64,000 bases of DNA from Acidobacteriota bacterium (GCA_039030395.1 JBCCEF010000020.1:17364-81363), one strand, 5' to 3'; counted from the first letter of the stretch, positions 22-19,988 are shown. The notes: generated by a model from the sequence alone, not told the origin. Program-made: numbers and translations.

Positions 22-1761
22 TTGGCTGGGCTGTTTGGCGCCTCTTGCAAACTGCTCGAGTCGGTGGAGACAGAGGGTGATTCTGTGAGATCTCCGCCCT
101 TTCGCCGATCCCGATCGGTTGGCTCTCTGAGCCCTGAAGTAGAGCCTCTCGCTGGGCTGTATGCACATTTGACCGGTAGGACGTCCGCTCCGGCGGCCTC
201 CAGCCCGTCGATGAAGCCGGCCGTCTTGGTTGGATTCTTCCAGCACGCGACGCCGTCCTTCCTCCACCGGAGCTATCGAGATCTCGACGACAGCGCTCCC
301 GGCCTCCTGCTGGCGGAGGATGCCGAGGACCTTCGCCAGCAGATCTTGATTCGGTCGGCTGCCCTTTGCTTGAGCGGCTTCAATGAACCCTCCGATGCCG
401 CCATCTACGGCACCCTGCCGTTCGGCCGAGGGAGAGAGGAGGAGCAAGTTCTCGGCGGAAACGCGGAGCCAGCCGAGGTTCGAACTCTACTTGGGGGAGG
501 TGTCAATGTCCTGACCGTTGTCGCTCACGGTGACGGAGTCGACGCTTCACTCGGAGAGAAAAACACTCTCTGCCCCTACCCGCAGCGTCTGCGCGAGCTC
601 GGTGATCGCGAGGAGAGAAACGGCTGCCAGATCGAGAACTATTGTCACCGCTTGGAACTGCCGTACGACGAAGCGATCGGGGGAGAGGCGTTGCTTTCTC
701 CCGGTGACATCTCGGCGAAGGTACTGCTCTGGGCCTCCTGCCTCGGATTCCTTCCGGCGGGAACCGTGGTGGGCGCTGCCCATGGGCTGGGGCGCCGCTT
801 CCTGCAGAGCGACCGCATCGGAGCGGTGGTGACGGCGTGGCGAGTGCAGACCGTCGATCCTGTCTGGCTGGAATCGCTGGCCCGCCGCATCAATTCGGGG
901 GTCCCGGTCGGCCAAGCCTTGGCTCAGGCTCTGCGAGCGCGACCCGATCTCTCGGTCAACGGAGGCTACTGTCTTCTTGGAGATCCCGCTTTGCGAACAG
1001 GACGCCCCGGAGGCCCATCGGGGGCAGAAATCTTCGGTTCACGGCCGAAAATACGGGGAGCTATCGCAGCCGGTACCGGCAAAGATCCGAAGCCCGATGG
1101 CACTCCCTTCCTCATTCTCTGGTCTCAGGGTGACTTGGAGCAAGCCGATACTGCCGTGAGATCGCGCCTGCTCTACGAGATCGGCGAATATCGTCGGGCT
1201 CGGCAAGACGGCGGTGACCCGGAGCGGGGAGGCGACGCGCCGGGACCGCGCCTGCGGCAAGCAGCGATCGATCTTTGGTTCGGCCGAGGCCATCCGCTGG
1301 CCAGCGCCTACTGGCAAGAATTCGCCGCTACGGTTCCACTCGGCAACTTTCGGACCTGCCCGAGTTGCCGTCTTCCGGACAACCGGGTGTTCGCCGCCCG
1401 GGCGCGGTTCTCCGGCCGAGGAATCGCCGATCGGTTGGTGCTGAATTGCGCCGTGTGCGGCATTGTCACCGATGTTCCGGGGGGATTCGCCCTGGCGCTG
1501 CACCGAACAGAGACCGGCCTTCGATGGGTCGGCACCCGGCCGGCAAGGTGCTGGTCCGCTGGCGTTATCCTCAAGGCTCAACGGGTCGATCGCCGCCGCG
1601 CTCTGCCCTGGCCCGCCGACAGCGCGGGTCAACCCGATCGGGAGCTGAATTTGGTGCGCGTCGGGATGCGAGGCATCGTCGACGTGGGGGTATGCATGAT
1701 GGTGGAAAGCGAGGCCCTTTTTGCGTCGACCGTGGTTCGAATCACACCGCCGGACCTATAG
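22..1761 (+). CDS. hypothetical protein; possible clan-CD (caspase/gingipain/CHAT-like) cysteine peptidase with a C-terminal CxxC...CxxC zinc-ribbon-like motif. The frame is open back to position 1, so the 5' end may lie outside the window.
   Basis: This is a long ORF in a coding-like frame. A hydrophobic strand followed by His-Gly (VLTVVAHGDG) sits ~70 aa upstream of a hydrophobic strand followed by Cys (AKVLLWASCLGF), which matches the His/Cys dyad layout of clan CD peptidases. The motif CPSCRLPD...NCAVCGIV occurs near the C-terminus. The gene is convergent with the next gene, and their stop codons abut. Confidence 0.45.
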   Translation: MAGLFGASCKLLESVETEGDSVRSPPFRRSRSVGSLSPEVEPLAGLYAHLTGRTSAPAASSPSMKPAVLVGFFQHATPSFLHRSYRDLDDSAPGLLLAEDAEDLRQQILIRSAALCLSGFNEPSDAAIYGTLPFGRGREEEQVLGGNAEPAEVRTLLGGGVNVLTVVAHGDGVDASLGEKNTLCPYPQRLRELGDREERNGCQIENYCHRLELPYDEAIGGEALLSPGDISAKVLLWASCLGFLPAGTVVGAAHGLGRRFLQSDRIGAVVTAWRVQTVDPVWLESLARRINSGVPVGQALAQALRARPDLSVNGGYCLLGDPALRTGRPGGPSGAEIFGSRPKIRGAIAAGTGKDPKPDGTPFLILWSQGDLEQADTAVRSRLLYEIGEYRRARQDGGDPERGGDAPGPRLRQAAIDLWFGRGHPLASAYWQEFAATVPLGNFRTCPSCRLPDNRVFAARARFSGRGIADRLVLNCAVCGIVTDVPGGFALALHRTETGLRWVGTRPARCWSAGVILKAQRVDRRRALPWPADSAGQPDRELNLVRVGMRGIVDVGVCMMVESEALFASTVVRITPPDL

Positions 1762-3669
1762 AGATAAATCGTTGACGTTGTCGACCCCAAGGACCGCCGC
1801 GCACAACCGCGTCACGCCCAGGGCGAGTCCGACGCAAGGCGGTAGGCCGGCTTCGAGAATGCGAACGAAACTCTCGTCGTTCCGTTCGACCATCGGATGG
1901 CTGCGTGCGTGGTTCGCCAAGTCCTCCCGCACCCGCGAGGCGCTCAGCTCTTCGCGCACGATCTCGCCGCAGGTTTCGCCGTTCACCACCAGCCAGAACA
2001 GACTTGCTTCTTCTCCTGGCTGGGCCGACAGCGGACTCCGGTGCAGTGGGATGTCCGTCAGGACCACCATGCCGTCGAGCTGGCGTACCGCGCGCTTGGT
2101 CAGCGTCATCCTCCCCCGTTCGACCTCATCCGACTCCAGGCCCGCGGCTTCTAGAGCGTCCGCCACAGCTTCTCGGTCTTCCAGGTCGACGCCCAGGGTT
2201 TGATAACAGGCGTCCCGGGCGCTGACCTCGACGGCCTCCGGCAGGTCCGGCAAGAGGTTGCGGATCAGTCGCACGGCGAGGGCCGCCATGTCGTCCATCG
2301 AAGCGAGGGCGGCGTAGGCTTCGAGAAGGGTGAATTCCGGGCTGTGAGCGGCATCTCTTCCCTCGTTCCTGAAGCTCGGCCCGATCTCGAAGCATCGGGG
2401 GATCCCGCTGGCGATGGCCGCCTTCAGTCCCTTCTCGAAGGTCAGCCGGAGGTAGCCCCAGCGTTCGTCGGCCGCGACCCAGGTTCGAAAGGGCCGGGCT
2501 CGGCCACCGAAGAATCCTCGCTCCAGCACCGGGGTGGAGAGTTCGATGAAGCCGGCTTGCCGGAAGCCCGTGCGGAGGGTGGACAGAACCCCTGCCACGC
2601 CGTGGTTCAGGCGGTAGCGGTCGAAAAAGACCGGTGCCTCCTGGGGCGAAAGCTGGCAGGGTATGTGGCATAACATCTTGGTCACGAACACGGTCGGCGT
2701 GCCGGCCCGCGAGCGCTCCAGAGAGCCCTCGGTCACCAGGTAGTCGTGAATCCGAATCCGCTCGGTCCGAGCCTCTCCTGGAAGATTCGCCGGGAGTCCG
2801 ATCTGGAACCGCCGGCCGCCGGCCGCCAGATCGATGAAGGCGACGGTGCGGTGGCGCCGCAGGTGAACGACGCGACCCGCCACCACGGTCGAAGTCGATG
2901 TCGGATCCTCCAGCAGCTTCTCCGCGGCCTCCTCCGAAGGAAGGAGGTGCGGAGTGAAGGTCGCCGCCACCGGCTCGCTGTGGACGTCGGGAGGGAGGGC
3001 CGAGGAAGGTCGGGATGTAGCCCACTGCGGGTTCAGTTCCGGCAGAAACTCATGGACATCGCGGCGGCGGGGCGAGGCCGCCAAAAGCCGAACGGCCCAG
3101 TCGGTCAGGGCCTTTCGTCGATCGGGCGAGCAACCCTTCTGCGCCGCCATGCGGAGCCCGTGGCGGGCGGCGTAGAGCGGCAAGACGTTCGAGGAGGCAC
3201 CGTAGCCGGTGAGCAAGCCGGTCAACAGGTCGAAGGCCGATCGCCGCTTCTTGGGATGGTCGATCCACAGCAACTCCGCGGCCAGAGGGCCGAGGTCACC
3301 CTCCTTGACGCCTTCCCCCGCAGGGCTCAACGGCTTTCCTTCTCGCGCATCGGCGAACAGGCCCGGCAGGTCGGACTTGCCGTACCGGTAGACCGCTGGC
3401 TGTACACGGAGGCGCGACAGCCAAGCGGTCGAGAGTTGGAGAAGCGACCAGCGGTCTCCACCTTCGATCAACTCCTCCGGTAGAGAGAGCAGCAGGGCGG
3501 GCAATCCAGTCGGCCCGAGGGTCAGCCGATGCTCCTCGCCCTGCCGCAGTTCTTCACCCGTCTGGTGGAGGGTGCGCAACTGCCGCGCGAAGCTTCGGCC
3601 GAAGGCGTAGGGATCTTCCCCAGGATGTAAATGATCCATCATTATGTAGAGTAGCGGCAGAGCGTTCAT
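1756..3669 (-). CDS. divergent class IIb aminoacyl-tRNA synthetase paralogue (LysRS/AsnRS/AspRS-like) with a ~250-aa N-terminal extension of unknown fold
   Basis: An OB-fold anticodon-binding-like segment is present (VVAGRVVHLRRHRTVAFIDLAAGGRRFQIGL). Motif 1-like FIELSTPVLE, motif 2-like FEIGPSFRNEGRDAAHSPEFTLLEAYAA and motif 3-like GLPPCVGLALGVTRL are all present. The segment FWLVVNGETCGEIVREELS resembles the LysRS FElfi.g.E..n..sEl segment. The first ~250 residues match nothing I recognise. Confidence 0.8.
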   Translation of the reverse strand: MNALPLLYIMMDHLHPGEDPYAFGRSFARQLRTLHQTGEELRQGEEHRLTLGPTGLPALLLSLPEELIEGGDRWSLLQLSTAWLSRLRVQPAVYRYGKSDLPGLFADAREGKPLSPAGEGVKEGDLGPLAAELLWIDHPKKRRSAFDLLTGLLTGYGASSNVLPLYAARHGLRMAAQKGCSPDRRKALTDWAVRLLAASPRRRDVHEFLPELNPQWATSRPSSALPPDVHSEPVAATFTPHLLPSEEAAEKLLEDPTSTSTVVAGRVVHLRRHRTVAFIDLAAGGRRFQIGLPANLPGEARTERIRIHDYLVTEGSLERSRAGTPTVFVTKMLCHIPCQLSPQEAPVFFDRYRLNHGVAGVLSTLRTGFRQAGFIELSTPVLERGFFGGRARPFRTWVAADERWGYLRLTFEKGLKAAIASGIPRCFEIGPSFRNEGRDAAHSPEFTLLEAYAALASMDDMAALAVRLIRNLLPDLPEAVEVSARDACYQTLGVDLEDREAVADALEAAGLESDEVERGRMTLTKRAVRQLDGMVVLTDIPLHRSPLSAQPGEEASLFWLVVNGETCGEIVREELSASRVREDLANHARSHPMVERNDESFVRILEAGLPPCVGLALGVTRLCAAVLGVDNVNDLSL

Positions 3670-3866: not shown

Positions 3867-5180
3867 ATGATTCCTCGACGCCCTTCCGATCTCGACGACC
3901 CCAAGCTCGAGGCCGAGACCGCCCATCCGATCGCGGGCGCGGAGGCCGTCTGGGCCAACGTGCCGGCGCTGCGGCGTGACTTCGGCCACCTTCCCGATGC
4001 GCCGACGACGACAGACGGCTGGCACACCTGGCTGGCCCGGCAGGGCGGACTGATCTCCGCCACCCAGGCGGCGCAGGAAGTGGCCAATACCCGGATCCCG
4101 ATCCGCGACGTGGCGGTGACCGTGTACCGCCTGCCGCGCGGCGGCCGCGCCTTCTCCGTTCCCCTGCGCTCCGTTGCCAGCGACTACGTGGATCCCATCG
4201 AAGGCGGCGGCCTGCTCAGCCTGAAGGCGGTCGGGGTCAAGCCGGGGGTGGTGCCCGAAGCCAACCTATTCAACTACAGCAACGGACTGCAGTGGTTGGA
4301 AGGGGTTCTGCACGAAGTTCTGATCCAGCGGGTGGTCGAGAAGGTGCTGCGGTACGCCGGCAGTTCGGTGAACTGTTTGCCGGTGTACGGAGCCCTCGAT
4401 GGCGGGTTCGCCGTTCGCGACAGCGAGGGCAATACCTGGCCGGCGGGGATTTTGGTTCGGCAGGCCCACCGCCGGCAGGTCAAGGGCTGGGACTTTCCGC
4501 TGCTCGGCAGCCCAGGCCAACAGCTGATGCTCGACACCGAGCTGGAACTCCGGCGCTACGGCATCACCTCGACTTCCGACAAGGGAACCTTCCAGCTCAA
4601 GCGGCACGCGGACGGGAGACTGGAGTTTCTCTGTGCCCACCTCGGGGGATTCGTTCCGGGAGACACTCCCGCGGGGGTTGCCCGCGGCCTGTGGGAGCGG
4701 TTCCGGACCTACGCCGAACCCGGTGAAGATTTCATTCGCTTCAAGGGGGTCGCCGTCCAGTTCACCCGCTTCGAGGAAGGGGTTGAACCACTGCTGCTCG
4801 ACTTCGGTGGCTTCCGCTTCTCCGACCGCTTCACCGGGCCGCTCCTCAGCTTGGTGCTCCAGCAGCCGAGCAACTGGGGCGGCACGATCAATCCGGATAG
4901 CGATGCCTATGTGCAGCCGGATCCGAATCGTGCTCTCGATCCTCGGTACTGGCGGGCGGAACCACTGGAGACGCTTTCGAAGAAGCACCTGGAAGGTGCT
5001 TTGGAGGCCCTGCCGGAGAGGCTGCCGGGGCCACCGGACGATGTGCCCTACTCGCCGGTGGAACATGTGGTCTGCCGCCTGGCCCAGGGATTCACCGGCG
5101 GCACCCTCGCAAGACAGGAAGTGGCCTCCGCCTTGGATCACCTCCTGGCGCTGACCACCGAGAGCCTGGAACGAGGCTAG
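3867..5180 (+). CDS. hypothetical protein (437 aa), member of the RiPP island; function unknown
   Basis: The ORF has coding-like composition and an AGGAG motif 4 nt upstream of the ATG. Its TAG stop overlaps the TAG stop of the convergent dehydratase gene in the palindrome CTAG (5177-5180). There are weak kinase-like hints only (SLKAVGVK, LLLDFGG). Confidence 0.6.
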   Translation: MIPRRPSDLDDPKLEAETAHPIAGAEAVWANVPALRRDFGHLPDAPTTTDGWHTWLARQGGLISATQAAQEVANTRIPIRDVAVTVYRLPRGGRAFSVPLRSVASDYVDPIEGGGLLSLKAVGVKPGVVPEANLFNYSNGLQWLEGVLHEVLIQRVVEKVLRYAGSSVNCLPVYGALDGGFAVRDSEGNTWPAGILVRQAHRRQVKGWDFPLLGSPGQQLMLDTELELRRYGITSTSDKGTFQLKRHADGRLEFLCAHLGGFVPGDTPAGVARGLWERFRTYAEPGEDFIRFKGVAVQFTRFEEGVEPLLLDFGGFRFSDRFTGPLLSLVLQQPSNWGGTINPDSDAYVQPDPNRALDPRYWRAEPLETLSKKHLEGALEALPERLPGPPDDVPYSPVEHVVCRLAQGFTGGTLARQEVASALDHLLALTTESLERG

Positions 5181-7888
5181 GCCCTCAGGCAGGACGAGTC
5201 CAACACCAGTTCCGTCGCCCAGCGTTCCCCCCGGGCGTCCATCGGAAAGGCCTCGGGAGTGGGCAGCATTTCCTCGAACTCCACCGGCCCGCCGGCCCGT
5301 TCGACGATGCCTGCCAGCAGTTCGAGGAAAGTTGGCGACCGCAGGTCGAGAAACTGTGGTTTGAAGGTCTGCTTGTCTCCAAAGATCACCCGCTCGATGA
5401 CGAAGACTCGCGCCGCGACGCCGTGAAGGCGTCGCCAGCGATCGAGGCCGACACGCGCCTGGGCGCCGGGTCGCTGCAGAATGTCGGCAAGCTCCGCCGC
5501 CGGCACCACCCAACGCCGGCGCGCCAGCACCAACCGGTCGAGAACCACCCGGTCGAGGTGCGTGACCTGGCCGTCGGTGCGCCGCGGTTGGGGTGGCGTG
5601 CGACTGCGGATCTCACCGGGCCCGAACTGCGCTAGGAAACCGATCAACGACGGCATGAAGGCGAGGGTGGCGGCGCCGAGATGGAGCGGCAACAGGCGCC
5701 AGCCCGCCGCATCGACTAGGACCGGCAGGGAATCGTCGAAGCGCACCCGCAGGGAGGCGAGTGGAATTCCCCGGTCCACCGCTACCGGCGGCGTTTCTCC
5801 CGGTAGCCATAGGGCACGTTCGGTCGGAACCTCGTGAACGTTGAGCGTGTCACCCTGGCTTGAATAAAGGTCGACGGGCTCCCCTCCCAGTGGATTCTGA
5901 CCCAGCCTCCGCAGGCCGGTCCCCGGGCCCATGCGGAAACCGTTGGCGATGCACCGACGGTCGGCCCGTTCCAGAATTGGCAGAAGGCGGCCGGGATAGC
6001 GGCTGGTGCCCTCGAAGACCCGATGGGCCATCCAGCGCCCGCCTTCGCCGCCGATTGGCTGGGCGAACAGGCATGGGCCGGACAGCGGGGTCACCCAGCC
6101 CGGCAGCTCGTCTAGCAGGGCCTCGAGGCCTCGGCGAGACATCACCGCCTCGCCGGCCGTGCCGGCGTCGCCCAGGCTCATTTCCGGGAGCGCACGCCAC
6201 AGTTTCCGGCGCTGTTTCTGGAGTTTGTCGAGGTCAGCCACAGCCAGTGGGTTGAAGCCGTGTCCATCGCTCGGGTCGGCCCCTTCTCCCAAGGTCCGAC
6301 GCACCGCGGGCCAGAGCGGTAGGGCGTGCTCGAAGAGGTCGAGGGCGGCCACCTCGTCGCGTTCCGGCCATTCGCGGCGGGCGATTTCCCGTAGGGTCAG
6401 CAGAATGTCGTAGCGGGGAGAGAGAAGGTCGAGAACGCGGAACCACGGTTCCACCTGACGCAGCAAGATCGTCGCGTCCTCCGCTCGCCCCAACACTGGC
6501 GTCGGCGCATCGGCGGCGGCGAGAGCGACGTCTTCGTAGGTCTCCGACCGCTTGTAGCGATGTAGTGTTGTCGTCGCCGGATAGCCCGCCGCGCGTCCGG
6601 CGACAAGCCAAGCCTCTTCGACGGCCCGGTCGATCGAGCGGGCGGCATCGACCGGCTCCTCACAGGTGGCGAAGGCCGATTCCGCCGCCAGCCAGGTGGC
6701 GAAGGCGTCTTTCCCCGGATCGCCCTCGACTCCGCCAAGCCAGTGGGCGATGCTCGATTCGAGGCGCGGTCCGGCGCTTGTCCAGGGTGCGGTGAGGACC
6801 AACACGCCCGCTGCAACCAGCCGGTCGAGGAGGCTCCGCGAGCGTTCTCGATCGCCGCCGAACTCTCCGCACAGCTTGTCCTCCAGATCTCCCAGCGTCG
6901 AGGCATCGGCAACTGGCTGACGCAGCCACTCGACGATCGTCGGATCGATGGTCACCGTCGCCGGCAGCCCGCCGATGCGGCGCAGGCGCAAGTTCTGATC
7001 TTCGCTCTTTGGAAGCCAGCGCACCGGTTTAATCAACCGGTGGCGGTCACCCTCCAGGTGGCGAAGGGAATCGTTGAGCTGAACGGGCCTTTGGCGCAGA
7101 ACCTCCGGTGACGCGAGCCACGCCGCCTCGATCTGCTCGACCAGGTAGCGCCGTACCCTCACCAGCGACCGCTCCTCCCACTCCCCCGGACACCCGACCA
7201 GCTGGATTCCCTCCGGAGAGTCCGGCCGAGCGCTGCCTCCGGCAGGCGGCGACCAGCCGGCGCGAGTCCAGCGGGTGAAGGTCGAGAAGGGCGAAAGCTT
7301 GAAGACGCCGCGGCTCCAGTAGCGCACCAGGCTGGCGCGGGCGCGTCGTGCTTTACGGCCGCGGCCCTGCAGCAGGGTCTTTCGCACCGCCGCCAGGCGC
7401 GAAGCCAGCGGTTGCGACGAGAGAGCCAGGGCGCGGCGAAAGGCAGGCTGATCGAGGGTGGAAACGAGAAAGGCGTCCTCGGCGCGCGAGCACTGGCGGT
7501 AGGTGGCATCGAGGTCGGAGTCGACCGCGTGGAGGTGCGTTGCCAGCGAGGCGAGCTGGCTGAGAGCACTGCGCGTCGAATCCGGCAGGACCTCCGACGG
7601 CATCTCCCGCCAGTCGCCGCCCGGGGGGCGACCGTTGAACAGGTCGCGCTTGAGCCGCAGCAAAGGGCTCCGGTGCTCCGGCGGCGCATTGCCCACGGCG
7701 ATGAAGAGTGCTTCGATCAGACCGGCACGCCGGGCATCGAGCTGCCGCACGAGATCTCGCCGCCTAGCCAGCAGCGGCTCGAGCCGTCGGCCGTCGAATG
7801 GGTCGGCGGGCGATGCCGACTGGCCGGCGATGCGTGCCGCCAGCAAAGGCGGCTGCTGAGACTCGTCCGTCGTCTCGATGTCCTTCAC
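5177..7888 (-). CDS. lanthipeptide/thiopeptide-type dehydratase, N-terminal (glutamylation, Lant_dehydr_N-like) protein of a split LanB; it could alternatively be a small-LanB/PEARL-type enzyme
   Basis: The protein is ~904 aa from GTG 7888. LanB N-domain hallmarks are present: LLRLKRDLFNGR, a SPFSTFT segment equivalent to the RxTPFGLF motif, GTSRYPGRLLP equivalent to G.SGRF, and a C-terminal KPQFLDLRSPTFLELL...GERWATELVLD end typical of the N-domain. No FF.RY..P.HLRLR elimination domain is present. The GTG start overlaps the upstream TGA (GTGA). The 185 codons upstream in the ORF-track entry are Arg/Pro-rich and overlap gene 7885-8934 in another frame. Confidence 0.85.
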   Translation of the reverse strand: MKDIETTDESQQPPLLAARIAGQSASPADPFDGRRLEPLLARRRDLVRQLDARRAGLIEALFIAVGNAPPEHRSPLLRLKRDLFNGRPPGGDWREMPSEVLPDSTRSALSQLASLATHLHAVDSDLDATYRQCSRAEDAFLVSTLDQPAFRRALALSSQPLASRLAAVRKTLLQGRGRKARRARASLVRYWSRGVFKLSPFSTFTRWTRAGWSPPAGGSARPDSPEGIQLVGCPGEWEERSLVRVRRYLVEQIEAAWLASPEVLRQRPVQLNDSLRHLEGDRHRLIKPVRWLPKSEDQNLRLRRIGGLPATVTIDPTIVEWLRQPVADASTLGDLEDKLCGEFGGDRERSRSLLDRLVAAGVLVLTAPWTSAGPRLESSIAHWLGGVEGDPGKDAFATWLAAESAFATCEEPVDAARSIDRAVEEAWLVAGRAAGYPATTTLHRYKRSETYEDVALAAADAPTPVLGRAEDATILLRQVEPWFRVLDLLSPRYDILLTLREIARREWPERDEVAALDLFEHALPLWPAVRRTLGEGADPSDGHGFNPLAVADLDKLQKQRRKLWRALPEMSLGDAGTAGEAVMSRRGLEALLDELPGWVTPLSGPCLFAQPIGGEGGRWMAHRVFEGTSRYPGRLLPILERADRRCIANGFRMGPGTGLRRLGQNPLGGEPVDLYSSQGDTLNVHEVPTERALWLPGETPPVAVDRGIPLASLRVRFDDSLPVLVDAAGWRLLPLHLGAATLAFMPSLIGFLAQFGPGEIRSRTPPQPRRTDGQVTHLDRVVLDRLVLARRRWVVPAAELADILQRPGAQARVGLDRWRRLHGVAARVFVIERVIFGDKQTFKPQFLDLRSPTFLELLAGIVERAGGPVEFEEMLPTPEAFPMDARGERWATELVLDSSCLRA

Positions 7889-9308: not shown

Positions 9309-9329
9309 GCTGATTGGACAACCCGCAAG

Positions 9330-11973: not shown

Positions 11974-13572
11974 ATGTCGGTACTCAAGGCCCCGGTAGAC
12001 TGTCGAATGCCGCAAACCTCCAACGCTTCACGAGCCACAGTCGAAACTGCTTCGCCGCGTGGCAGCGCCCTGCTGTCGGTATTGCTTGTCATAAGCCTCG
12101 CGGGGATGGCGCCAGCTCTAGCGCAGGAAGCCGGTTGCCCGACCAACGTACCGGCGACTGTGATTCAGAGCCTCGAGAACGCCGAGATCCGCGCCCAGGC
12201 AGGGCAGGCGCCGAACTGGGCTCAGATAGGCGGTGACTACCAAAGGGCTCTTCGGCTGGTCCAGGCTCAGATTCGAGAGCACGAGAGCAAGCTGCGCCAA
12301 TACGAAGCCGGGATCGCGCAAGGTAACGGTGCGCAGTGGAGGAAGGCCGCCTCCCTGACGCGAGACGGTCTCAAACTCAACCGAGCCGCAGCCCAAGTCC
12401 TCGCCTGTCACGCTCGGCGGTCGCATGGAGGCGCCACAGGCGCCCCCGGCTCGAGGTCATCGCAAGAGACTCTCTTCGGCGAGACCGTCCGTCCGGTTGG
12501 CAGGGAGCCGAGGTCCCGAGGCTGGGGCCCCCGCCGCTCCCAAACCGACGATCTACCGCGGGCGGACCTGGGTGAGGCTTTCGACACAGCCCTGGATGAG
12601 CTGCTAGAGGGCCTCCTGGACTGGGAAAACGACCCAGGAGAAGAGACCGAATCAGGGGCCAACTCCGGTCCCGAAACCGGCTGTAAGGCTCAGGTCACTG
12701 CGCGACTCAAGACTGACAACACGGGACAAGTCTTCCTTGACGTTCGCGCCAGCTCTGATGAACCGAGTGCCAACGTCTCCTTTCAGCTTTCCAACCCAGG
12801 CCTCACAGAGCGGCCCTTCGGAGATCCGGTGTTCTTGGAAACCACCGAAGGGTTCGCCGAGCTGTCCATCCCACTGGCGCACGCCAGGCGCGATGCTGCG
12901 ACCGAGTCCTCCCCATGCAGCAATCTCGAAGAAGCCAGCCGGCAGCTTCGAGAGAACTGGACTCGGCTCTCAACCAAGTACGACGTTCTGGACACCTACC
13001 TGTCAGAGGTCAGCCGCTATCGCGAGGAGTTCTCAGAGACAGAGACATGGGTAGCTGTGGGCTATATCGCTCTCGCGTTTAAGCAGGTTGCCGAGACCCT
13101 GGAGGTGTACCTAATGGGTTCGAGCCTCAGCACCTGCGTCGGCGGCTTGGCGAACGCCACGATCTCCGAGATTGTCTCCCCGGCCTCCTGCCTCGCCGGC
13201 GGGAACTGCCTGTACGACTTCCTAAACAAGCACGCAAGTCTATGGCTGGAGGCAGCCTCCTGCACTGGATCACAGATCGCCGCGACCATCTCCGGCATCA
13301 AGGGTCGACTGGACTTTGTGATCAGCACCGCTGAGAACTACTCGCACCTGCAGGATATCAACGAGTTCAGGGACATCGTCCGCGGGAACATGCTTCGTCT
13401 CGAAGGCGAGCTAAGGAAGGGTGACGCCAAGCTGAAGCAGCTCGCGAACAGTCGCCGCGAGGTTGAAGAGGCGATACAAGCTCTCCACTCTTCGTGCCGA
13501 TCCTCGGCCCTTGAGGGGATCGCAGTGAAAGTCCTTTCCTGTCAAGTCAAGCTTCCGGAACCGCTCGGATAG
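11974..13572 (+). CDS. transposon passenger 1: secreted hypothetical protein (532 aa)
   Basis: The N-terminus is signal-peptide-like (ALLSVLLVISLAGMAPALAQEAG). Coiled-coil-like segments are present. GC content is lower than in the host flanks. No recognisable domain was found. Confidence 0.6.
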   Translation: MSVLKAPVDCRMPQTSNASRATVETASPRGSALLSVLLVISLAGMAPALAQEAGCPTNVPATVIQSLENAEIRAQAGQAPNWAQIGGDYQRALRLVQAQIREHESKLRQYEAGIAQGNGAQWRKAASLTRDGLKLNRAAAQVLACHARRSHGGATGAPGSRSSQETLFGETVRPVGREPRSRGWGPRRSQTDDLPRADLGEAFDTALDELLEGLLDWENDPGEETESGANSGPETGCKAQVTARLKTDNTGQVFLDVRASSDEPSANVSFQLSNPGLTERPFGDPVFLETTEGFAELSIPLAHARRDAATESSPCSNLEEASRQLRENWTRLSTKYDVLDTYLSEVSRYREEFSETETWVAVGYIALAFKQVAETLEVYLMGSSLSTCVGGLANATISEIVSPASCLAGGNCLYDFLNKHASLWLEAASCTGSQIAATISGIKGRLDFVISTAENYSHLQDINEFRDIVRGNMLRLEGELRKGDAKLKQLANSRREVEEAIQALHSSCRSSALEGIAVKVLSCQVKLPEPLG

Positions 13573-13671
13573 GAGGCCATGCGGTTCATCGAGCTTGTCT
13601 TGATGCGTCCCCGGTCTCGCCGCCTACCCGTTCCCATACAGCCAGGTAGAAACAACACTGGAGGAGCGCGC

Positions 13672-15162
13672 ATGTATACCATTACGAGACAATCGAACCT
13701 TCGGCCAGTCCTGGATCTCGCTCTTGCGGCGCTTCTGCTCGCTTTCTCCGCGACGTCGGCGCTCGCGGAGGATCCAATTGAGGCTCGATACCAAGGTGGC
13801 GACTACAGTGGTGCGATCGAGTTTGCCGAGAATCGCCTCAAAGAGGCCCCGGAGGATCTGCGTGCCCGCAAGCTGATGCTCGCTGCGCTGCTCAAGCTTG
13901 GGGATGCTCATTTCGCTCGGACGCTACTGGATGACCTGCCCAACGACCGTGCGCATGAGCGCTTCAAGCAAAGTGCAGAGAGAATCCTTGAGCGGTTTGA
14001 GGCTAGGGAGCTGGACGAGGCCAAGATCATCGCCGCTCTTGCGCACTTCCAGACCGACTCGGCAATAGACGTGATCCGTGAATCCCATTTTACGCAGCTG
14101 GAAAAGAAACTCCTAGAGTCGCAGATTCTGGCCCTTTCTGGGCGCTTTTCCGAGGCGCTTGGGGCCATCTCAGGCGCTGAGGTTTCGAGCTACTCGCAGA
14201 AGAAGCTTCTAGACGACCTCACATCGCGGACTCGGGAGAAGGCCCAGCGTTTTGAAGAGTTGTGGGACAGCGAGATTCGCTTTTTTGTAGATTCGCCAGA
14301 GTCGTCTGCCCACTGGGGCTACTGCACCAAGTCAATACCTAACTACACCCTCGAAGACTTCGTCAGAGTTGTTGACGATGTGGCACAGCTCGCACCCCTA
14401 GACGGCCGAGTGCTAGACCTTATCTTCTTGTCTTCGCTCTTCGTCACGGACGACTACGAGCCTGTGCGGAGACTGGGCGAGGCCATCTTGTCGGCGAAGG
14501 GTAGCCTAGGCTTTTGGGCGCACTCCAGAGACTTCCACTACCGATTGGTCGTTGACAGTCGACAGCGGACAGTGAGCATCCAAGAGCAGCGGCCAATCGA
14601 AACGAGCTTTCGGCAAAATTTGATGGGCACTGGATGCAAGAAATCGAAGCAGTCCTACGGGAATCCATTAAAGCCGTATCGGGTCTCGTTCGATGCAATC
14701 CGAAGTGTGGAGCAGCACAATGGCGGAAACAACAGCTTTGATGACAGTTTCATAGGCTTCAACGGCCAACACGAATCCGGTAACCTCAAGGTTGCCACGC
14801 TCGTCTTCTGGGAGTGGGGCCGAGCCGCGGAAAGTGCGGTCTACCGGAAGCTGGGGCGGTTCTTCGTGGACCTTTTTGGGGTCTCTGCTGCCAAACTGGT
14901 TCCGGAGCGCCAGGACCTGGGCTCTGGTGCCCTAGCGCTAGTGTTCGGAGCTGCCTACGGCCTTCAGGCCCTGAACCAGGGGACCTCCTTCGACATAGCG
15001 GCGTTTCAGCAGGACTTGATGGACGGCGCAAAGCTGCTGGAGGAAGCGAACGCCCAGAACCGGGAGCGGCGGATCGCCTGGATGCAGCACCTCAAGTCTG
15101 AGGAGATTCTCAGCATCGACGAGTCGCGATTCGAGTCCTTAGAAGACCTTCTCGGGAGCTAA
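13672..15162 (+). CDS. transposon passenger 2: secreted hypothetical protein with a TPR-like N-terminal region
   Basis: GGAGGA lies 6 nt upstream of ATG 13672. A signal peptide is present (LALAALLLAFSATSALAEDP). Helical-repeat-like sequence follows (EAPEDLRARKLMLAALLKLGDAHFAR). Confidence 0.6.
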   Translation: MYTITRQSNLRPVLDLALAALLLAFSATSALAEDPIEARYQGGDYSGAIEFAENRLKEAPEDLRARKLMLAALLKLGDAHFARTLLDDLPNDRAHERFKQSAERILERFEARELDEAKIIAALAHFQTDSAIDVIRESHFTQLEKKLLESQILALSGRFSEALGAISGAEVSSYSQKKLLDDLTSRTREKAQRFEELWDSEIRFFVDSPESSAHWGYCTKSIPNYTLEDFVRVVDDVAQLAPLDGRVLDLIFLSSLFVTDDYEPVRRLGEAILSAKGSLGFWAHSRDFHYRLVVDSRQRTVSIQEQRPIETSFRQNLMGTGCKKSKQSYGNPLKPYRVSFDAIRSVEQHNGGNNSFDDSFIGFNGQHESGNLKVATLVFWEWGRAAESAVYRKLGRFFVDLFGVSAAKLVPERQDLGSGALALVFGAAYGLQALNQGTSFDIAAFQQDLMDGAKLLEEANAQNRERRIAWMQHLKSEEILSIDESRFESLEDLLGS

Positions 15163-15433
15163 TACGATTTCGCAGACCGTAGAGAGAGCGAAGTCGAGGC
15201 CGCTCTCCGAGGCTCTGCACCAGTCCAGAGAGTCCGTGACGGGGTATGATTGCGCGGTACGATCGCAAAAGCGAAATCGACACCCCGCAACCGAGATGCC
15301 CAGCGACTCGCCAAGATCCTTCGGGACGGAGGCTACTCCTATGACCAGGCGAAGCATCTGGTCGCCGAGGCGCGACGCCTGGTCGGCCTGAAGCCGCCGC
15401 GTCGACGCAAAGGCAGCGTTGATCGCTTGACCC

Positions 15434-18217
15434 GTGAGGAAGGTTGCCGCGCCAGAAGCCGTTCGAGGTCGACGAAGACCTTCTGGCTCACGTCGCGGAC
15501 CAGCTGAACGTGCACCCGATGCGGCCGACCTGATCGCGCGGTACGCACTGCGACATCCGACGATTTCGGAACATGCCGAGCGGACGAGTCGTTACCTCGG
15601 CCTTCGCCCATTCGAATCCCGAGACCGCCGAGAGCTGCGTCTGTTCATCCGCAAGGAGGTCGAGCACCTCGAGCAGGTCTCTGGACTTCTTGCGGCGGCA
15701 GAAGGACACCTGCGCCGGCAGGGGCTCCTCTTACCGGCGGAATCCACCCTGTGCCGCGTCGTCGGCGAGGAGGGACGGGCCTTCCGCAAGAGTCTTTTCG
15801 AGAAGGTGGAGTCCACGATACCCCAGGCGGTCAAGGACGCCATCGACGGGCTTCTCATCGCGGAGCGGGATGAATCCGAAACCTCCGCGCTTCAGTCGAT
15901 CAAGGAACCACCCGGCTCGGCATCTCCTCGAGCGATCCTGGCAGAGAGGGACAAGCTCGATGCGATCCTCGCAACAGGGGCCATGGACGTCGATCTCTCT
16001 TGGGTTCGCGGCGCACTGCGCAAGTCCCTGTCCCATCGCGTCCGCCAGTCAAGCGCTCATCGCCTCCGCGAGCTCGTGCCCGGGCATCGCTATGCCGCGA
16101 TGCTGTGCTTCCTGCAGGAGGTCCACGGAGACACGATCGATCAGGTCGTTGATCTCCACGCGAAGGTGATGACTCAGACCTACCGTGGTACGAAGAACCG
16201 GCTCGACAAGGAGTACTCCCGGAATCGGAGATCGCTAGTGGCGAAGCTGTCGACGTTGGCGGCGGTGGGAGAGATCCTACTCGATCCCGAGCTACCGGAT
16301 CGGGATCTCCGCGGGGCAGTGTTCTCTCGCGTACTGCGCGAGGTTTTCGAGTCCCAGGTCAAAGAGACGCGCAGATGGCTGAGCGAGAAGAGCGACCTCT
16401 TCCCGAAGGTGGCCGCGCGCTACGCCTACTTCCGGCGGTTCTCGCGCCAGGTGCTCGAGCGCCTTCACCTGGAGCCTGAGGCGACCACGGATGCCAGCGA
16501 AACCCGCCAGTTGGTCGCTTCCGTGGATCTGCTCCGCCGACTCAACGCTGAACGGAAACGCTCGGTGCCGGAAGGAGCGCCGCCAGGCTTCGTCCCGAAG
16601 AGCGTACGCCCATTCCTCGAGGTCGATGGCTCGATCGATCGGGCAGCCTACGAGTGTGCGGTCCTGACCGCGATTCGAGACGAGGTCCGCAGCGGGAACA
16701 TCGCCGTCCGAGGCAGCAAGCGCTTCGGTCGCCTCGAGGATCTCTTCATGCCTCCGAGCGCATGGGAGATCGAGCGGTCCAGCTTATTCGAGAAGGCCGG
16801 CTTGCCTGCGCTCGGTCAGGCCGCAGCCGGGCACGTGTCCGGCCTGGTCGGGCAGTCCTACGATCGATTCCTGGACACGCTCCCTCGCAACGCCTTCGTC
16901 GAGGTCAACGCGGAGGCGGGCTGGAAACTCGGATCCGATCCGGCGGAGCAGATGGATGCCATTGCGGAGGAGAGGCTCGCTCGTTTGAACGGTTTCCTCG
17001 AGGAACACATGCGGCGGATCCGGTTGCCAGACCTGCTCATCGCGGTCGACAATGAGGTCCGTTTCTCGCGGTTCCTCTCGCGAGATCCAAGGCAACGTTC
17101 GCAAGAGAGCGTCTGCCAGGCTGTTGCTGCAGTGATGGCCTACGGCTGCAACCTTGGTCCCGAGACGATGGCCCGGCTCACGCCAGGCGTGAGCTACGCG
17201 CGGATCAAGCGGGTGGCTGACTGGAATCTCCCTGAAGAGGCACTGCGCGCAGCCTTGGCGCAGATCGTAAACGCGATCGGAGGGCTCTCGACGTCGAACG
17301 TTTGGGGCGAAGCCAAGACGGCGTCGAGTGACGGTCAGCGGTTCCTCTTCCCTCGGCGGTCCGCGCGGCGCACCTACAGTCACCGGATGGGGGACTATGC
17401 CCTGGAGTTCTACTCCTTCATCGCCGACCACTACGCCCCCTTCTTCTCCTTTCCGATCGAGTGTTCCGAGAGAGACGCCGCCTACGTCCTCGACGGCCTG
17501 CGCTACTACGAAGCCGATCTCGAGATCGACGAGCACTACGTCGACACCCACGGCCTCACGGAAGCCAACTTTGCCGGATTCGCGATGCTGGGCCTGCGCT
17601 TTGCGTCCCGGATCCGGGGACTGCGACGGCAGAGTCTCTACCACGCAGACAGGCAGCGGGATTACGGGGCACTCGCCGAGATGCTGCGGCCGCGGGACCG
17701 ACTCCTCCGGTTAGACTGGATCGCCGAGCAGTGGGATCGTATGGGGCAGTTCTTCTGCTCGATGGCGACCGGCCACGCGACTGCCTCTGTCTCCATGAAG
17801 CGCATCGTCGGCTTCGGGCCCAGGAACCGTCTCTACCGAGCGATCCGAGAGCTCGGCCGAGCCCTCAAGACAGTCTTCCTCCTCGACTACCTGAGCCAGC
17901 CGGACCTGCGGCGTCGGGTTCGCCGCGGCCTTCTGAAGTCCGAAGAGCTACACGCCTTGGCAAGAAGCGTGTTCTACGGGAAGCTCGGCAAGGCGGATTG
18001 GCGCGACTTCCGGCGGCAGATGTCAACCGCCAGCTGCCTCCTCCTGATTCTTGCTGCGATCATCTACTGGCAGATCCGCGAAATCGAGCGCGTGACCGCG
18101 GAAGCCGCGGACGACGTGCCCACTGACCTCCTCGTGCATGTCAGCCCGATCAGCTGGGAGAACGTCGTCCTCTATGGCGAGTACCGGCTGCGTCCGGAAC
18201 TCGTTGCACTCGGGTGA
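15434..18217 (+). CDS. tnpA: Tn3-family DDE transposase TnpA; the 5' end appears frameshifted/decayed, so this is probably a pseudogene
   Basis: The C-terminal two-thirds is typical Tn3 TnpA (SSDGQRFLFP...YSHRMGDYALEFYSF...EHYVDTHGLTEANFAGFAMLGLRF). The conserved N-terminal segment is split across two frames: VDEDLLAHVADQLNVHP in one frame stops at TGA 15531-15533, and APDAADLIARYALRHPTISEHAERTSRYLGLRPF continues in the long ORF frame. Confidence 0.85.
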   Translation: MRKVAAPEAVRGRRRPSGSRRGPAERAPDAADLIARYALRHPTISEHAERTSRYLGLRPFESRDRRELRLFIRKEVEHLEQVSGLLAAAEGHLRRQGLLLPAESTLCRVVGEEGRAFRKSLFEKVESTIPQAVKDAIDGLLIAERDESETSALQSIKEPPGSASPRAILAERDKLDAILATGAMDVDLSWVRGALRKSLSHRVRQSSAHRLRELVPGHRYAAMLCFLQEVHGDTIDQVVDLHAKVMTQTYRGTKNRLDKEYSRNRRSLVAKLSTLAAVGEILLDPELPDRDLRGAVFSRVLREVFESQVKETRRWLSEKSDLFPKVAARYAYFRRFSRQVLERLHLEPEATTDASETRQLVASVDLLRRLNAERKRSVPEGAPPGFVPKSVRPFLEVDGSIDRAAYECAVLTAIRDEVRSGNIAVRGSKRFGRLEDLFMPPSAWEIERSSLFEKAGLPALGQAAAGHVSGLVGQSYDRFLDTLPRNAFVEVNAEAGWKLGSDPAEQMDAIAEERLARLNGFLEEHMRRIRLPDLLIAVDNEVRFSRFLSRDPRQRSQESVCQAVAAVMAYGCNLGPETMARLTPGVSYARIKRVADWNLPEEALRAALAQIVNAIGGLSTSNVWGEAKTASSDGQRFLFPRRSARRTYSHRMGDYALEFYSFIADHYAPFFSFPIECSERDAAYVLDGLRYYEADLEIDEHYVDTHGLTEANFAGFAMLGLRFASRIRGLRRQSLYHADRQRDYGALAEMLRPRDRLLRLDWIAEQWDRMGQFFCSMATGHATASVSMKRIVGFGPRNRLYRAIRELGRALKTVFLLDYLSQPDLRRRVRRGLLKSEELHALARSVFYGKLGKADWRDFRRQMSTASCLLLILAAIIYWQIREIERVTAEAADDVPTDLLVHVSPISWENVVLYGEYRLRPELVALG

Positions 18218-18259
18218 GCGGCCTACCGTATTCGGTTATAGCTTTCTGCCCGGTACCCT
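18216..18259. repeat. Tn3-family right terminal inverted repeat (IR-R)
   Basis: See IR-L. It begins immediately after the tnpA stop (TGA 18215-18217). Confidence 0.85.
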
Positions 18260-18264
18260 AAGAC
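18260..18264. repeat. 5-bp target-site duplication AAGAC (right copy)
   Basis: It is identical to 11712-11716 and directly abuts IR-R. Confidence 0.85.
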
Positions 18265-18295
18265 CGGCGGCTCGAGCTAACCCGAAGGAATCCGG

Positions 18296-19222
18296 TCAGC
18301 CGGCGGCAACGTCGAGGGCTCGCTTCCAGCCGTAGAGGATGAGCGGGCGCTGGCGATGGATCGGCAGGGCGAGCTGCTTGAGGGTGACGTGGACCACTTC
18401 TCGCAGCAGGGCGGCACCGGTGTAGGGCGAGGTTTCCGAAGGACGATGCTCGCCCGGCGGAATGATCGCCAGCAGGCGCTCCAGGGCCGCCGCCGTCGGG
18501 CCCTCGCTTGAGGACTCGCTCTCCCAGGCGCGAGATAGGAGGTCCAGGTTTGCCGGTCCGAGGACTTCGGCTAGGCGGGCCGCCATGTCGTCTTCGGTCT
18601 GCATCCGGCGGATAATCGACGCGGCATGGTGGCGCCAGTAGACCGAGGGATGGCTCCAGGCCCGTCCGAGTACGGCCTCCAGCCGCGACAGCCAGGCGAC
18701 CGCCGCCGCCATCGCAGATGTACCCTCTCCTAGGGTTCGCAGAACGTCGTCCGCGAGGCGGTCGAAGATCCGCCAGGCTTCGTCCGGCCTCGAGGTCGCC
18801 CGCAGCAGGCGGAGCGGGTAACCGTCCGCTGGCTGCGCACACCACCGAACGGAATCGCGTTCGGCGAAGCCCTCCTCGGCATCGGTCACACAAAGGGATT
18901 TGCCGAGGCATTGGCGGTGCCGAAGGGCCAGTTCGTCCTCGCCGATCTCGCCGCTGGCGGGATGCTCGGACAGGTGGTGACGGATCGCTTCGCCGAGAGC
19001 CCGCCTCACCTCCCCAAGACGCCCCGGAGAGACGGTCAGGAGGAGAAACAGATGGGGGCCTCGGGCATCGAACCGGTCGAACCAGAAGTGGCTGATGGAT
19101 CCGGTCCGGCGCAGGTCGCGGATTGCCGGTACAAGGCCGTTCACCAGCAGAGCCGTCTGCTCCGGCAGGTGCCAGCGATAGACATTCCCGGCGAGGTGGG
19201 GTCCCGCTTCTATGGAGCTCAA
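18296..19222 (-). CDS. SpaB_C / Lant_dehydr_C-like protein, copy 3 (divergent)
   Basis: It carries SISHFWFDRFDARGPHLFLLLTV, a divergent W.F.R[YF]....GPHL.L.L signature located ~45 aa from the N-terminus, as in the other two copies. Before the Tn3 insertion this gene was convergent with the JmjC gene. Confidence 0.6.
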   Translation of the reverse strand: MSSIEAGPHLAGNVYRWHLPEQTALLVNGLVPAIRDLRRTGSISHFWFDRFDARGPHLFLLLTVSPGRLGEVRRALGEAIRHHLSEHPASGEIGEDELALRHRQCLGKSLCVTDAEEGFAERDSVRWCAQPADGYPLRLLRATSRPDEAWRIFDRLADDVLRTLGEGTSAMAAAVAWLSRLEAVLGRAWSHPSVYWRHHAASIIRRMQTEDDMAARLAEVLGPANLDLLSRAWESESSSEGPTAAALERLLAIIPPGEHRPSETSPYTGAALLREVVHVTLKQLALPIHRQRPLILYGWKRALDVAAG

Positions 19223-19238
19223 CGCAGGGAACGTCGGC

Positions 19239-19988
19239 TCAGGGGTAAGGGATCAAGATGTCGTCCAGCTCATAGAGCTGACGAGCCTTGCCGCAGAGAT
19301 ATTCCGCCCGCAGCCCATGCTTGAGGATGTGTTCCAGTGACCGGCGCTCCGGAATCGTCAGGCTCGGCAGAGAAAGCACATAGGAATCCAGCGTGGAGTA
19401 GTAGATGGGCTTGCCGCGACGGTCGATGAGCAACGGATCTCGGCCGGCGGCGAGGGCGCAGATCGTCCGGTAGAAGCTCTTGACGACCTCCCAACGGCGC
19501 TGCGCCCGGGCGATCCGCGCCTCCAGGAAAAAGAACTCCACCCCATGATGGGCCAAGGGCAAAAGGAAGGGGAGAAATCCGACGACCTCGCGCAGGCAGT
19601 CCCGCGCCCTCGAAACATCGTTCCAGGCCGCTTGATGTTGCCCCCTGAGAAACGATTCGTAGGCCGCAGCGGTGAAGTACCAGCGGCCCACTACTCCCGC
19701 CCAGTCGGGTCGCTCCTGCTCGAAAGTAGCCATGCCTTCTCGCGCCCGGGAGAGCGCCTCACCGGCTTCCGCCAGGCGACGGCCGTGCAGCAACTGAACC
19801 GCCTCGTCGACCGCCGCGCGCGCTTTCGCCGCATCGCTCTCGAGGTAGGCCTGAATCCACGAGTCGCCCTCCCGGCCACCCTTCATGACGAGGAATTCCC
19901 ACGGCGGAAAATCTTCCATGGTGAGCTTCCCGGTGTCCGGGGAAGGAGCCCACCGGACCGGTGCGTCGGTACTTGCTGCCACGCCCAT
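19239..19988 (-). CDS. hypothetical protein (249 aa), upstream partner of SpaB_C-like copy 3
   Basis: The ORF is coding-like and lies 16 nt from the downstream gene on the same strand. No recognisable motif was found. Confidence 0.5.
   Translation of the reverse strand: MGVAASTDAPVRWAPSPDTGKLTMEDFPPWEFLVMKGGREGDSWIQAYLESDAAKARAAVDEAVQLLHGRRLAEAGEALSRAREGMATFEQERPDWAGVVGRWYFTAAAYESFLRGQHQAAWNDVSRARDCLREVVGFLPFLLPLAHHGVEFFFLEARIARAQRRWEVVKSFYRTICALAAGRDPLLIDRRGKPIYYSTLDSYVLSLPSLTIPERRSLEHILKHGLRAEYLCGKARQLYELDDILIPYP

Follow-up and report, generated by a model that had tools for sequence, protein, structure and literature searches.

The 64,000-nucleotide stretch of DNA analysed here, from an Acidobacteriota bacterium (GCA_039030395.1 JBCCEF010000020.1:17364-81363) and called the window at its full length, contains a genuine gene cluster for a peptide that is made on the ribosome and modified after translation (a RiPP). 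The cluster is of the LanB-type, tRNA-dependent kind. The genes under study lie between positions 22 and 19988, and the conserved core is made up of 5177-11723 and 18296-19988. It encodes a TbtB-like LanB N-terminal protein (LanB-N), three SpaB_C paralogues (C1, C2 and C3), a helical protein of ~226 aa, a ROX-type JmjC oxygenase and one precursor peptide. By homology this cluster is a member of a recurrent, uncharacterised family in uncultured, soil-type bacteria. We argue that the core is a thiopeptide/pyritide-type split-LanB cluster in which dehydration would be followed by closure of a small macrocycle. This is a tentative proposal, and we hold it to be somewhat short of probable.

Like pyritide clusters and class I lanthipeptide clusters of the split-LanB kind, this one has a split, tRNA-dependent LanB dehydratase, made up of LanB-N and C2. 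LanB-N (5177-7888, minus strand, 903 aa with a GTG start) is a stand-alone protein of the glutamylation type. It matches Lant_dehydr_N at 2.5e-15, and Pfam finds no fused elimination domain in it. The solved structure nearest to its family profile is TbtB, the thiomuracin dehydratase (6EC7, 1e-45), ahead of the goadsporin enzyme GodF (9JHQ, 8e-23). C2 (9433-10491, plus strand) is a stand-alone SpaB_C protein that matches Lant_dehydr_C at 4.7e-34 and TIGR03891 at 3e-27, and its family profile also matches TbtD and PbtD. It must be noted that single-sequence PDB searches with C1, C2 and C3 return nothing, and that family profiles are needed. The residue roles used here for lyase positions in NisB and CoiSA are those of PMC9486935. 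PHIRLR in C2 (in GGPHIRLR) aligns with NisB R784/R786, and E-x-x-R-Y-G-G (E-T-D-R-Y-G-G) aligns with E823/R826. A conserved His in QLHMTANRLG is presumed to be the H961 equivalent, in a segment not directly aligned to NisB. By this mapping C2 is the canonical glutamyl lyase of the split LanB. It is found with LanB-N in every complete related locus, including the minimal loci L013 and L020. A preliminary description of this DNA had taken the SpaB_C gene next to LanB-N, which is C1, as the elimination partner. The residues assign that role to C2 at 9433-10491 instead.

The precursor gene (9156-9308, plus strand) has an AAGGAGG ribosome-binding site and encodes 50 aa (MSDDVKKGLDKLENVDITEISDEDLEGVSGGAEIDEGDCDSWWCCSNTNA) that are homologous to the precursors of related loci. 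The leader ends in ...ISDEDLEGVSGG, the spacer is AEIDEGDCD and the core is S-W-W-C-C-S-N-T-N-A. The core region has three Cys, two Ser and one Thr. A pyritide precursor is expected to have two Ser a few residues apart after the leader, in a cluster with no azole genes, and this is the arrangement in the window. The pyritide precursor MroA1 reads ...DEELAALSVGG-LGNTEVGA-S-G-W-L-G-S-W-V-I (PMC9247985), and the window precursor reads ...DEDLEGVSGG, a 9-residue spacer and S-W-W-C-C-S. The leader ends are alike (SVGG and VSGG), the spacers are 8 and 9 residues long, and both cores have S-x4-S with Trp at position 3. The MroB/MroC split LanB pair dehydrates Ser1 and Ser6 of MroA1 (PMC9247985). MroD, which has the SpaB_C fold, then builds a pyridine macrocycle, which is 14-membered, and the leader leaves in the form of a carboxamide (PMC9247985).

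C3 (18296-19222, minus strand) is the candidate macrocyclase, a SpaB_C paralogue that resembles pyridine synthases. Its match to Lant_dehydr_C (6.5e-8) is above the gathering score. The top NCBIfam model is NF045556 (TbtD_PbtD) at 5e-9, and the same model comes first for 14 of 14 members of the family. When the family profile is compared with solved structures it finds PbtD (5e-6) and TbtD (1e-3). C3 has RGPHLFLLL, in which both glutamate-binding Arg are gone, where PbtD has RGPHLELW. The E/R motif is absent as well. On these residues C3 is not a lyase, since it has lost the glutamate-binding positions as PbtD has. Its partner is the helical protein (19239-19988, minus strand, with a probable start at 19919 that gives ~226 aa). 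Homologues of the helical protein occur in 14 related loci at 1-4 copies each, and 12 of the 13 related loci with C3 have it, L006 being the exception. No Pfam family matches it above threshold, and its profile meets only weak matches in the PDB, to designed helical-repeat and TPR-like chains.

C1 (7885-8934, minus strand) is the divergent member of the trio. It is coupled to LanB-N by GTGA and stands directly upstream of LanB-N in most related loci. Its match to Lant_dehydr_C (0.0032) falls below the gathering score, and it is placed by hhalign, which finds its family homologous to the C2 family with a probability of 98.8%. Of the lyase positions, C1 keeps the equivalents of R786 and the His; R784 is replaced by Lys, and E823 and R826 are both replaced by Ser. 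In lyase residues it is by this alignment intermediate between C2 and C3. We also considered whether C1 or C3 could be a syn-glutamyl lyase. The signature of those enzymes is Lys for Tyr (PMC9486935); C1 keeps the Tyr and C3 has Phe, and the assignment was rejected. The three separate SpaB_C-like proteins that had been proposed for this locus all stand, as does the LanB-N-type protein without an elimination domain.

The distribution of these genes was examined in two ways. A search of 5.8 billion proteins returned three relatives of LanB-N, at 29-34% identity, in loci that share the layout. A profile scan in which each GTDB species was represented by one genome gave ~22 loci with a full-length LanB-N at 27-36% identity. 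All of these are metagenome-assembled genomes from the Acidobacteriota (Thermoanaerobaculia, Holophagales, Terriglobia) and Gemmatimonadota (Longimicrobiaceae), and overall their proteins are ~25-43% identical to those of the window. BLAST finds counterparts of LanB-N, C1, C2, C3, the helical protein and the precursor, each in the majority of the ~20 related loci whose completeness allows a judgement. The cluster is not one of a kind. It has these relatives, and its precursor closely parallels those of pyritides.

The related loci differ in whether they have LanC, and this difference tracks the core. The LanC-type loci run in the order LanC, C1, LanB-N, precursor(s), helical protein (1-4 copies), C3, C2, and their cores resemble D-S-C-x-x-C-C-S-C-S-x-C-S. 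In the LanC-less type, to which the window belongs, the cores contain Trp: CSVWCCSNESV, CSVWCCTNVAAV, FCSIWCCSG..., AAEACSWDDCSNS..., WCSWRRCSNA..., GSGWCCDAAQ, DWSLWCCNNNN... and ...DCDSWWCCSNTNA in the window. All 8 Trp-core loci (the window and seven relatives) are without LanC, and none of the 10 LanC-bearing loci has Trp in its core. LanC is found only where the core has the extra C-S-x-C-S tail. For most relatives the absence of LanC was judged within 10 kb on each side; L016 is an 8-kb contig. In the window, domain scans of all 64 kb (larger open reading frames only for 20-64 kb) find no LanC, YcaO or radical SAM gene, in agreement with what had been claimed. LANC_like has zero matches among the scanned proteins, and so does the related family's own LanC when it is compared with the window by tblastn. 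Since seven Trp-core relatives are also without LanC, its absence is a property of the subfamily and not an artefact of the window edge.

C3 varies with the core too. C3 is present in six Trp-core loci; the spacing is S-x4-S in five of these and S-x4-T in L005. L016 and L018, the two Trp-core loci that have neither C3 nor the helical protein, have just one Ser. C3 therefore tracks the second dehydratable residue. Across the family the precursor C-termini vary in length and sequence, and the internal S...C-C-S motif is kept. The Trp-core loci with C3 share a conserved Cys 1-2 residues ahead of the first Ser, and a Cys stands immediately before the second Ser in nearly all cores.

The Trp-core state goes with loss of LanC and, mostly, with gain of the JmjC gene (10488-11723, plus strand), which is found in 5 of the 7 LanC-less Trp-core relatives. 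Its product is a ROX-type Fe(II)/2-oxoglutarate oxygenase, as had been recognised. It matches JmjC_2 (PF08007) at 2.5e-22, with 79 bits against a gathering cut-off of 22, and the family profile finds NO66/MINA53 at 1e-38. The iron triad HxD...H is kept (IHPD...H) and the C-terminal tail is winged-helix-like. In profile match, triad and tail it is like the ribosomal oxygenases NO66, MINA53 and YcfD. It differs from them in that the gene lies within a RiPP operon and is coupled to the glutamyl lyase gene, and its substrate is therefore presumably the precursor peptide. Its orthologues are 30-43% identical. In L005, L006 and L019 the gene comes next after C2, which is also the order in the window; in L018, L020 and L024 it has another place in the cluster. 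Bacterial homologues of PF08007 have been noted in RiPP-like contexts, with no function given (PMC12710340). The homologue in L020 is without the HxD iron ligands and has TYTC instead of HPD. The Thermoanaerobaculaceae locus L005 also has a flavin-dependent Trp halogenase (PF04820, 1e-138; 8301-9899) between C3 and LanB-N, and its core is CSVWCCTNVAAV. This marks the core Trp as a target for tailoring, and it suggests that the L005 product would carry a halogenated Trp.

We propose the following route. LanB-N would glutamylate both core Ser of S-W-W-C-C-S with Glu-tRNA(Glu), and C2 would eliminate the glutamate to leave two dehydroalanines. C3 with its ~226-aa helical partner would then close a small macrocycle across S-x4-S. 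The closure would most likely be a pyritide-like [4+2] reaction that expels the leader in the same step. No conserved leader protease is found in the annotated parts of the family, which fits loss of the leader during cyclisation. JmjC would hydroxylate or otherwise oxidise a core residue. Trp is the probable one, and it tracks the LanC-less and mostly JmjC-bearing subfamily. C1, which is coupled to LanB-N, would have an accessory or a catalytic role. We infer all of this chemistry, and especially the C3, JmjC and C1 steps, from homology, residue conservation and the co-variation of genes with cores. Of the two working models in the preliminary description, the better fit is the one in which a SpaB_C paralogue cyclises the peptide after dehydration.

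Several observations weigh against this route. C3 scores 36 bits where the equivalog cut-off of TbtD_PbtD is 325, and its alignment to PbtD/TbtD spans only the N-terminal ~90 residues. The second position in L005 is Thr and not Ser. To our knowledge, known pyridine synthases use two dehydroalanines. The Cys upstream of the first Ser would leave with the expelled leader, which argues that it matters in some other way, and the Cys before the second Ser is left unexplained by pyritide chemistry. The co-variation comes from few, phylogenetically related loci. Finally, the exporters and cyclase-type regulators that adjoin the related clusters are missing from the window.

It is worth setting the cluster beside the known systems it most resembles. 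The comparison with the Mro enzymes of Micromonospora rosaria follows their published description (PMC9247985) and not the Mro protein sequences. Pyritide clusters (MroA/MroB/MroC/MroD) likewise have a stand-alone LanB-N, a separate lyase and a further SpaB_C protein, with no YcaO and no dedicated leader protease found. The window differs in adding a third SpaB_C paralogue (C1), the ~226-aa helical partner and JmjC. The residues of its macrocycle include Cys-Cys, and there is a conserved Cys upstream of the first Ser. MroB and MroD need a C-terminal tripeptide, which the window family does not conserve, and C3 is far below the equivalog cut-off for pyridine synthases. The hosts differ as well, being Actinomycetota for the pyritides and Acidobacteriota/Gemmatimonadota here.

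Thiopeptides of the thiomuracin/GE2270 type (TbtB/TbtC/TbtD) are alike in that LanB-N is nearest to TbtB and that C2 and C3 match TbtD and PbtD. The sister-loci cores, S-C-x-x-C-C-S-C-S-x-C-S, resemble that of thiomuracin, which we take to be ...I-C-C-S-C-S. Unlike thiopeptide clusters, neither the window nor the mapped or annotated parts of the related loci have YcaO, cyclodehydratase or dehydrogenase genes. Thiazoles are therefore not expected. In place of azole genes there is LanC in the sister loci and JmjC in the window locus.

One can imagine a scenario in which no pyridine is made at all. The core Cys would add to the dehydroalanines to give a compact set of lanthionine rings, reverse and forward, and the product would be a LanC-independent lanthipeptide. 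The rings would form spontaneously or by the action of C1 and/or C3 with the helical protein. The leader would be cut at GG by a protease or exporter encoded elsewhere. We consider this rather unlikely, but it is the main rival of the pyritide-like reading, and there is a good deal in the family that would suit it. The cores are rich in Cys, and the window alone has three Cys with two Ser and one Thr. Nearly all cores have Cys adjoining Ser, and in the C3-bearing Trp cores a Cys just upstream of the first Ser is conserved. A double glycine is conserved at the end of the leader, which many lanthipeptides also have, and the sister loci have a genuine LanC. The Thr of L005 would suit methyllanthionine better than pyridine. 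Class I lanthipeptide clusters with split LanB or extra lyases (pinensin, SapT with SptBa/SptBb, CoiSA/OlvSA) also have a split dehydratase, more than one SpaB_C protein, a double-glycine-type leader and a Ser/Cys core. For class V systems, lanthionines have been documented to form free of LanC (PMC11186320).

The difficulty is that C3 and the helical protein occur in LanC-bearing and LanC-less loci alike. They are therefore not simply a substitute for LanC. We know of no thioether cyclase with the SpaB_C fold, and this counts against the lanthionine scenario. The one neighbouring ABC transporter that was examined has no double-glycine peptidase (C39) domain. The window and seven relatives lack the LanC that class I lanthipeptide clusters have. 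C1 and C3 are also without the syn-lyase signature, and three paralogues with a helical partner are an undescribed arrangement.

A further scenario departs from both kinds of chemistry. C1 and/or C3, with the helical partner, would catalyse neither glutamate elimination nor the known pyridine synthesis of thiopeptides and pyritides. For example, a ring containing Cys and Trp may be closed on a dehydroalanine, with JmjC forming an oxidised or cross-linked Trp. We regard this as rather unlikely. If a new reaction of C1 or C3 were real, the RiPP scaffold would be new and the SpaB_C fold would have a third activity. It is still less likely that the lysyl-tRNA synthetase (LysRS) paralogue encoded to the left of the core adds to this by aminoacylating the peptide or an intermediate.

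The cluster could also be decaying or incomplete, having lost its LanC, exporter and regulator genes, lying in a region visited by a transposon, and making no product. We judge this to be improbable. A Tn3-family transposon (11717-18259, plus strand) does lie inside the cluster, between JmjC and C3, and it is not part of the pathway. It has the DDE_Tnp_Tn3 transposase (tnpA, 15434-18217, 7e-106) and long terminal inverted repeats of 51 nt that are 88% complementary. Five bp of the target, AAGAC, are duplicated, with one copy at 11712-11716 and the other at 18260-18264. The duplication is intact, which points to a recent insertion. JmjC now ends in ...AVKTG. Before the insertion its end was ...AVKTGGSS and its stop codon stood at 18278-18280, 15 bp away from that of C3, a convergent gene. 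The alteration is confined to the final four codons, in a C-terminal tail that is variable among the homologues, so no gene of the cluster is disabled by the element. The MacB/ABC exporters, the adenylate-cyclase-type regulators and a ~335-aa family found in related loci are indeed missing from the window, as decay would predict. Against this, the core genes are full length with normal codon bias, the catalytic residues are kept, and the LanC-less state is common to seven other loci.

The second model of the preliminary description, in which LanB-N acts like a peptide aminoacyl-tRNA ligase (PEARL) and adds an amino acid from aminoacyl-tRNA supplied by the LysRS paralogue to the peptide C-terminus, is very improbable and is weakly refuted by the comparative data: LanB-N lacks a fused elimination domain, as do TglB and the ammosamide enzymes, and 1.5 kb away there is a LysRS-like gene whose class II motifs are intact, but the paralogue is absent from all related loci and has its sole close relative in a non-RiPP setting, the lyase C2 is encoded with every LanB-N in complete loci, and the part of the substrate that is conserved is the internal S...CCS and not the C-terminus. 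The LysRS-like gene is also on a separate transcription unit, divergently and convergently arranged. The nearest solved relative of LanB-N is a dehydratase, TbtB. None of the oxidative tailoring or release enzyme genes that are typical of PEARL pathways was recognised.

We did not find the gene set of this cluster described in full-text literature searches, and comparison with the known systems agrees with the earlier claim that the layout matches no described one. The closest earlier observations are that class I clusters can have extra stand-alone homologues of the elimination domain, which might do other chemistry (PMC7268733), and that bacterial JmjC proteins of PF08007 occur in RiPP-like contexts (PMC12710340). 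The suggestion of an undescribed RiPP subclass holds in that the family is undescribed, and needs correction in that it is related to the split-LanB RiPPs of the pyritide/thiopeptide kind. The cluster is a good lead for genome mining and experiment, not a categorical surprise. The SpaB_C fold is known for two activities, glutamate elimination and the building of pyridines in thiopeptides and pyritides. Three distinct paralogues of this fold kept together across two phyla, with a new partner protein, are a natural experiment on how it diversifies. The swap between LanC and a ROX-type JmjC, in step with a core that has either a Cys/Ser tail or Trp, offers enzyme-residue rules that can be tested. 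The products would be very small, rigid macrocycles rich in Cys and Trp, and the phyla they come from have hardly any characterised natural products. Libraries of macrocycles are already built with pyritide enzymes, and relatives that accept Cys and Trp would therefore be of use. These results also correct the tempting but unsupported idea of a dedicated aminoacyl-tRNA synthetase (aaRS) feeding the pathway.

The open reading frames, coordinates and domain assignments reported earlier were all recovered by gene calling and domain scans. Third-position GC of 0.69-0.81 backs the called frames over long overlapping alternatives. The gene order, for which no strands had been given, is 22-1761 (plus), the LysRS paralogue (minus), a 437-aa protein (plus), LanB-N (minus), C1 (minus), precursor (plus), C2 (plus), JmjC (plus), the transposon, C3 (minus) and the helical protein (minus). 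The genes had been described as tightly packed, with 4-nt overlaps or abutting stops. Such overlaps do join two pairs on the same strand: GTGA at 7885-7888, where the C1 stop overlaps the LanB-N start, and ATGA at 10488-10491, where the C2 stop overlaps the JmjC start. The overlaps at 1756-1761 and 5177-5180 are of convergent stop codons and involve no translational coupling.

The AT-rich divergent intergenic region at 8935-9155 presumably contains the promoters of both flanking units, C1/LanB-N and the precursor operon. The sigma-70 consensus has no match in it, so this role is only inferred. A stable hairpin (9322-9376, plus strand; RNA fold of -45.3 kcal/mol, z = -3.5) comes right after the stop codon of the precursor and is followed by a U-rich tract, GUUUCCUUUU. 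From its position and fold this is possibly an attenuating terminator, and it could set the ratio of precursor to enzyme transcript. A simple terminator scan did not call the hairpin, and simple promoter and terminator scans around the precursor called nothing.

The three genes to the left of the core are neighbours of the cluster and not demonstrated members of the pathway. Across the ~20 related LanB loci, homologues are missing for all three: the LysRS paralogue, the 437-aa protein and the clan-CD-fold protein. The LysRS paralogue is probably not part of the cluster. All three could be tailoring genes that only this locus has, or belong to another cluster that continues left of the window. 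They could also have been a module that travels together, but no two of them co-occur in L001 or in L042-L044, and this idea was rejected.

The LysRS-like class II aaRS paralogue (1756-3669, minus strand) matches tRNA-synt_2 at 5e-32 over residues 361-635. A weak OB fold lies at 262-332 (17 bits against a cut-off of 27), the N-terminal ~250 aa are unmatched and the class II motifs are intact. The best LysRS models give 132-147 bits against cut-offs of 428-468, and by these scores it is a LysRS paralogue and not the housekeeping LysRS. The earlier account of a class-IIb paralogue with a novel ~250-aa N-terminus is right as to domain and N-terminus. The role it was given in the pathway is another matter, since the gene is absent from the related loci and the context of its one close relative is non-RiPP. 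Its one close relative among 5.8 billion proteins is from Kitasatospora. In that locus (L001, Kitasatospora sp. NPDC059795, 7120-13181) the gene sits with a cytochrome P450, two dCTP-deaminase-like proteins, a 216-aa unknown protein, a methyltransferase and an AAA_33 kinase. From its gene content this operon looks like a small-molecule pathway, possibly of the nucleoside type, that uses an aaRS-like enzyme.

The 437-aa protein (3867-5180, plus strand) has no Pfam or NCBIfam match, and its AlphaFold model (mean predicted local distance difference test, pLDDT, of 43) is too poor for a fold search. It has the size of a LanC, and we considered it as a cryptic one. This was rejected: there is no BLAST similarity, hhalign against the LanC profile gives 2%, a mixed alpha/beta structure is predicted and the relatives are non-RiPP. 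There are three relatives, and both of the two with visible context are in non-RiPP settings, one with iron-uptake and phosphoribosyltransferase genes and the other in a carbamoyltransferase/aminotransferase/glycosyltransferase cluster.

The protein at 22-1761 (plus strand) had been called a possible clan-CD peptidase, and its AlphaFold model (pLDDT 84.8) supports this at the level of fold. The model is of the gingipain/caspase-like kind, with a C-terminal 4-Cys module and a beta-sandwich. Foldseek matches it to RgpB (2.5e-6, probability 1.00, TM 0.31/0.40) and then to MALT1 and separase. Among 41 sequences Cys240 is invariant and His169 near-invariant, in keeping with a His/Cys dyad. The frame is open to window position 1, and the gene may be cut by the window edge. 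The family has ~540 members of ~620 aa with an invariant 4-Cys module, and no Pfam model. P0141, one of the members, is a fusion with a class I/II aminotransferase. The contexts of other relatives are varied secondary-metabolite clusters and include PqqD with NTP_transf_5, APH with HopA1 and radical SAM, and aminocyclitol-like genes.

The transposon carries two passenger genes, one of 532 aa with no family match (11974-13572) and one of 527 aa that contains TPR (13579-15162). Its G+C is lower, at 0.60-0.61. No resolvase was recognised in the element, defence-system models do not match its passengers or the unknown proteins, and it has no near match among plasmids. From 20 to 64 kb the window has DUF1800/DUF1501 genes, glycogen genes, a kinase, an RND efflux system and similar genes. 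A tRNA-Cys(GCA) and a tRNA-Gly(GCC) lie close together at 34977-35242, with a tRNA-Gly(CCC) further on at 48812-48887. No tRNA-Glu or tRNA-Lys is near the cluster.

The related clusters have neighbours of their own. The divergent locus L020 (Candidatus Multivoradales) has a long, repeat-like core, ...TCNTS...VCNTT...SCNTS...ACHTS... (12653-12922), near its JmjC homologue (13073-14257). MacB-type (805 aa) and ABC_membrane transporters are common neighbours across the family. Large proteins with a double zinc ribbon, an AAA_16 ATPase and TPR flank eight related clusters (L019 2982-6308; L005 19123-22563; L018 2294-5536; five more). Those of L005 and L019 also have an adenylate/guanylate cyclase domain, and the one in L018 is without it. 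Judging by their domains, these proteins may regulate the clusters. The ~335-aa family, which is absent from the window and has no meaningful Pfam or PDB match, occurs in 12 related loci (L018 7141-8199 and 13323-14312; L019 1991-2968; L021 2049-3083; L006 6146-7156; L016 486-1547; others). Its genes usually come immediately after small genes for GG-leader peptides, whose tails are Gly-rich and begin with Trp (DWGDGTGTLPPGSGG, WSGDDDGGTGG). Together they may be a second, undescribed peptide-modifying system.

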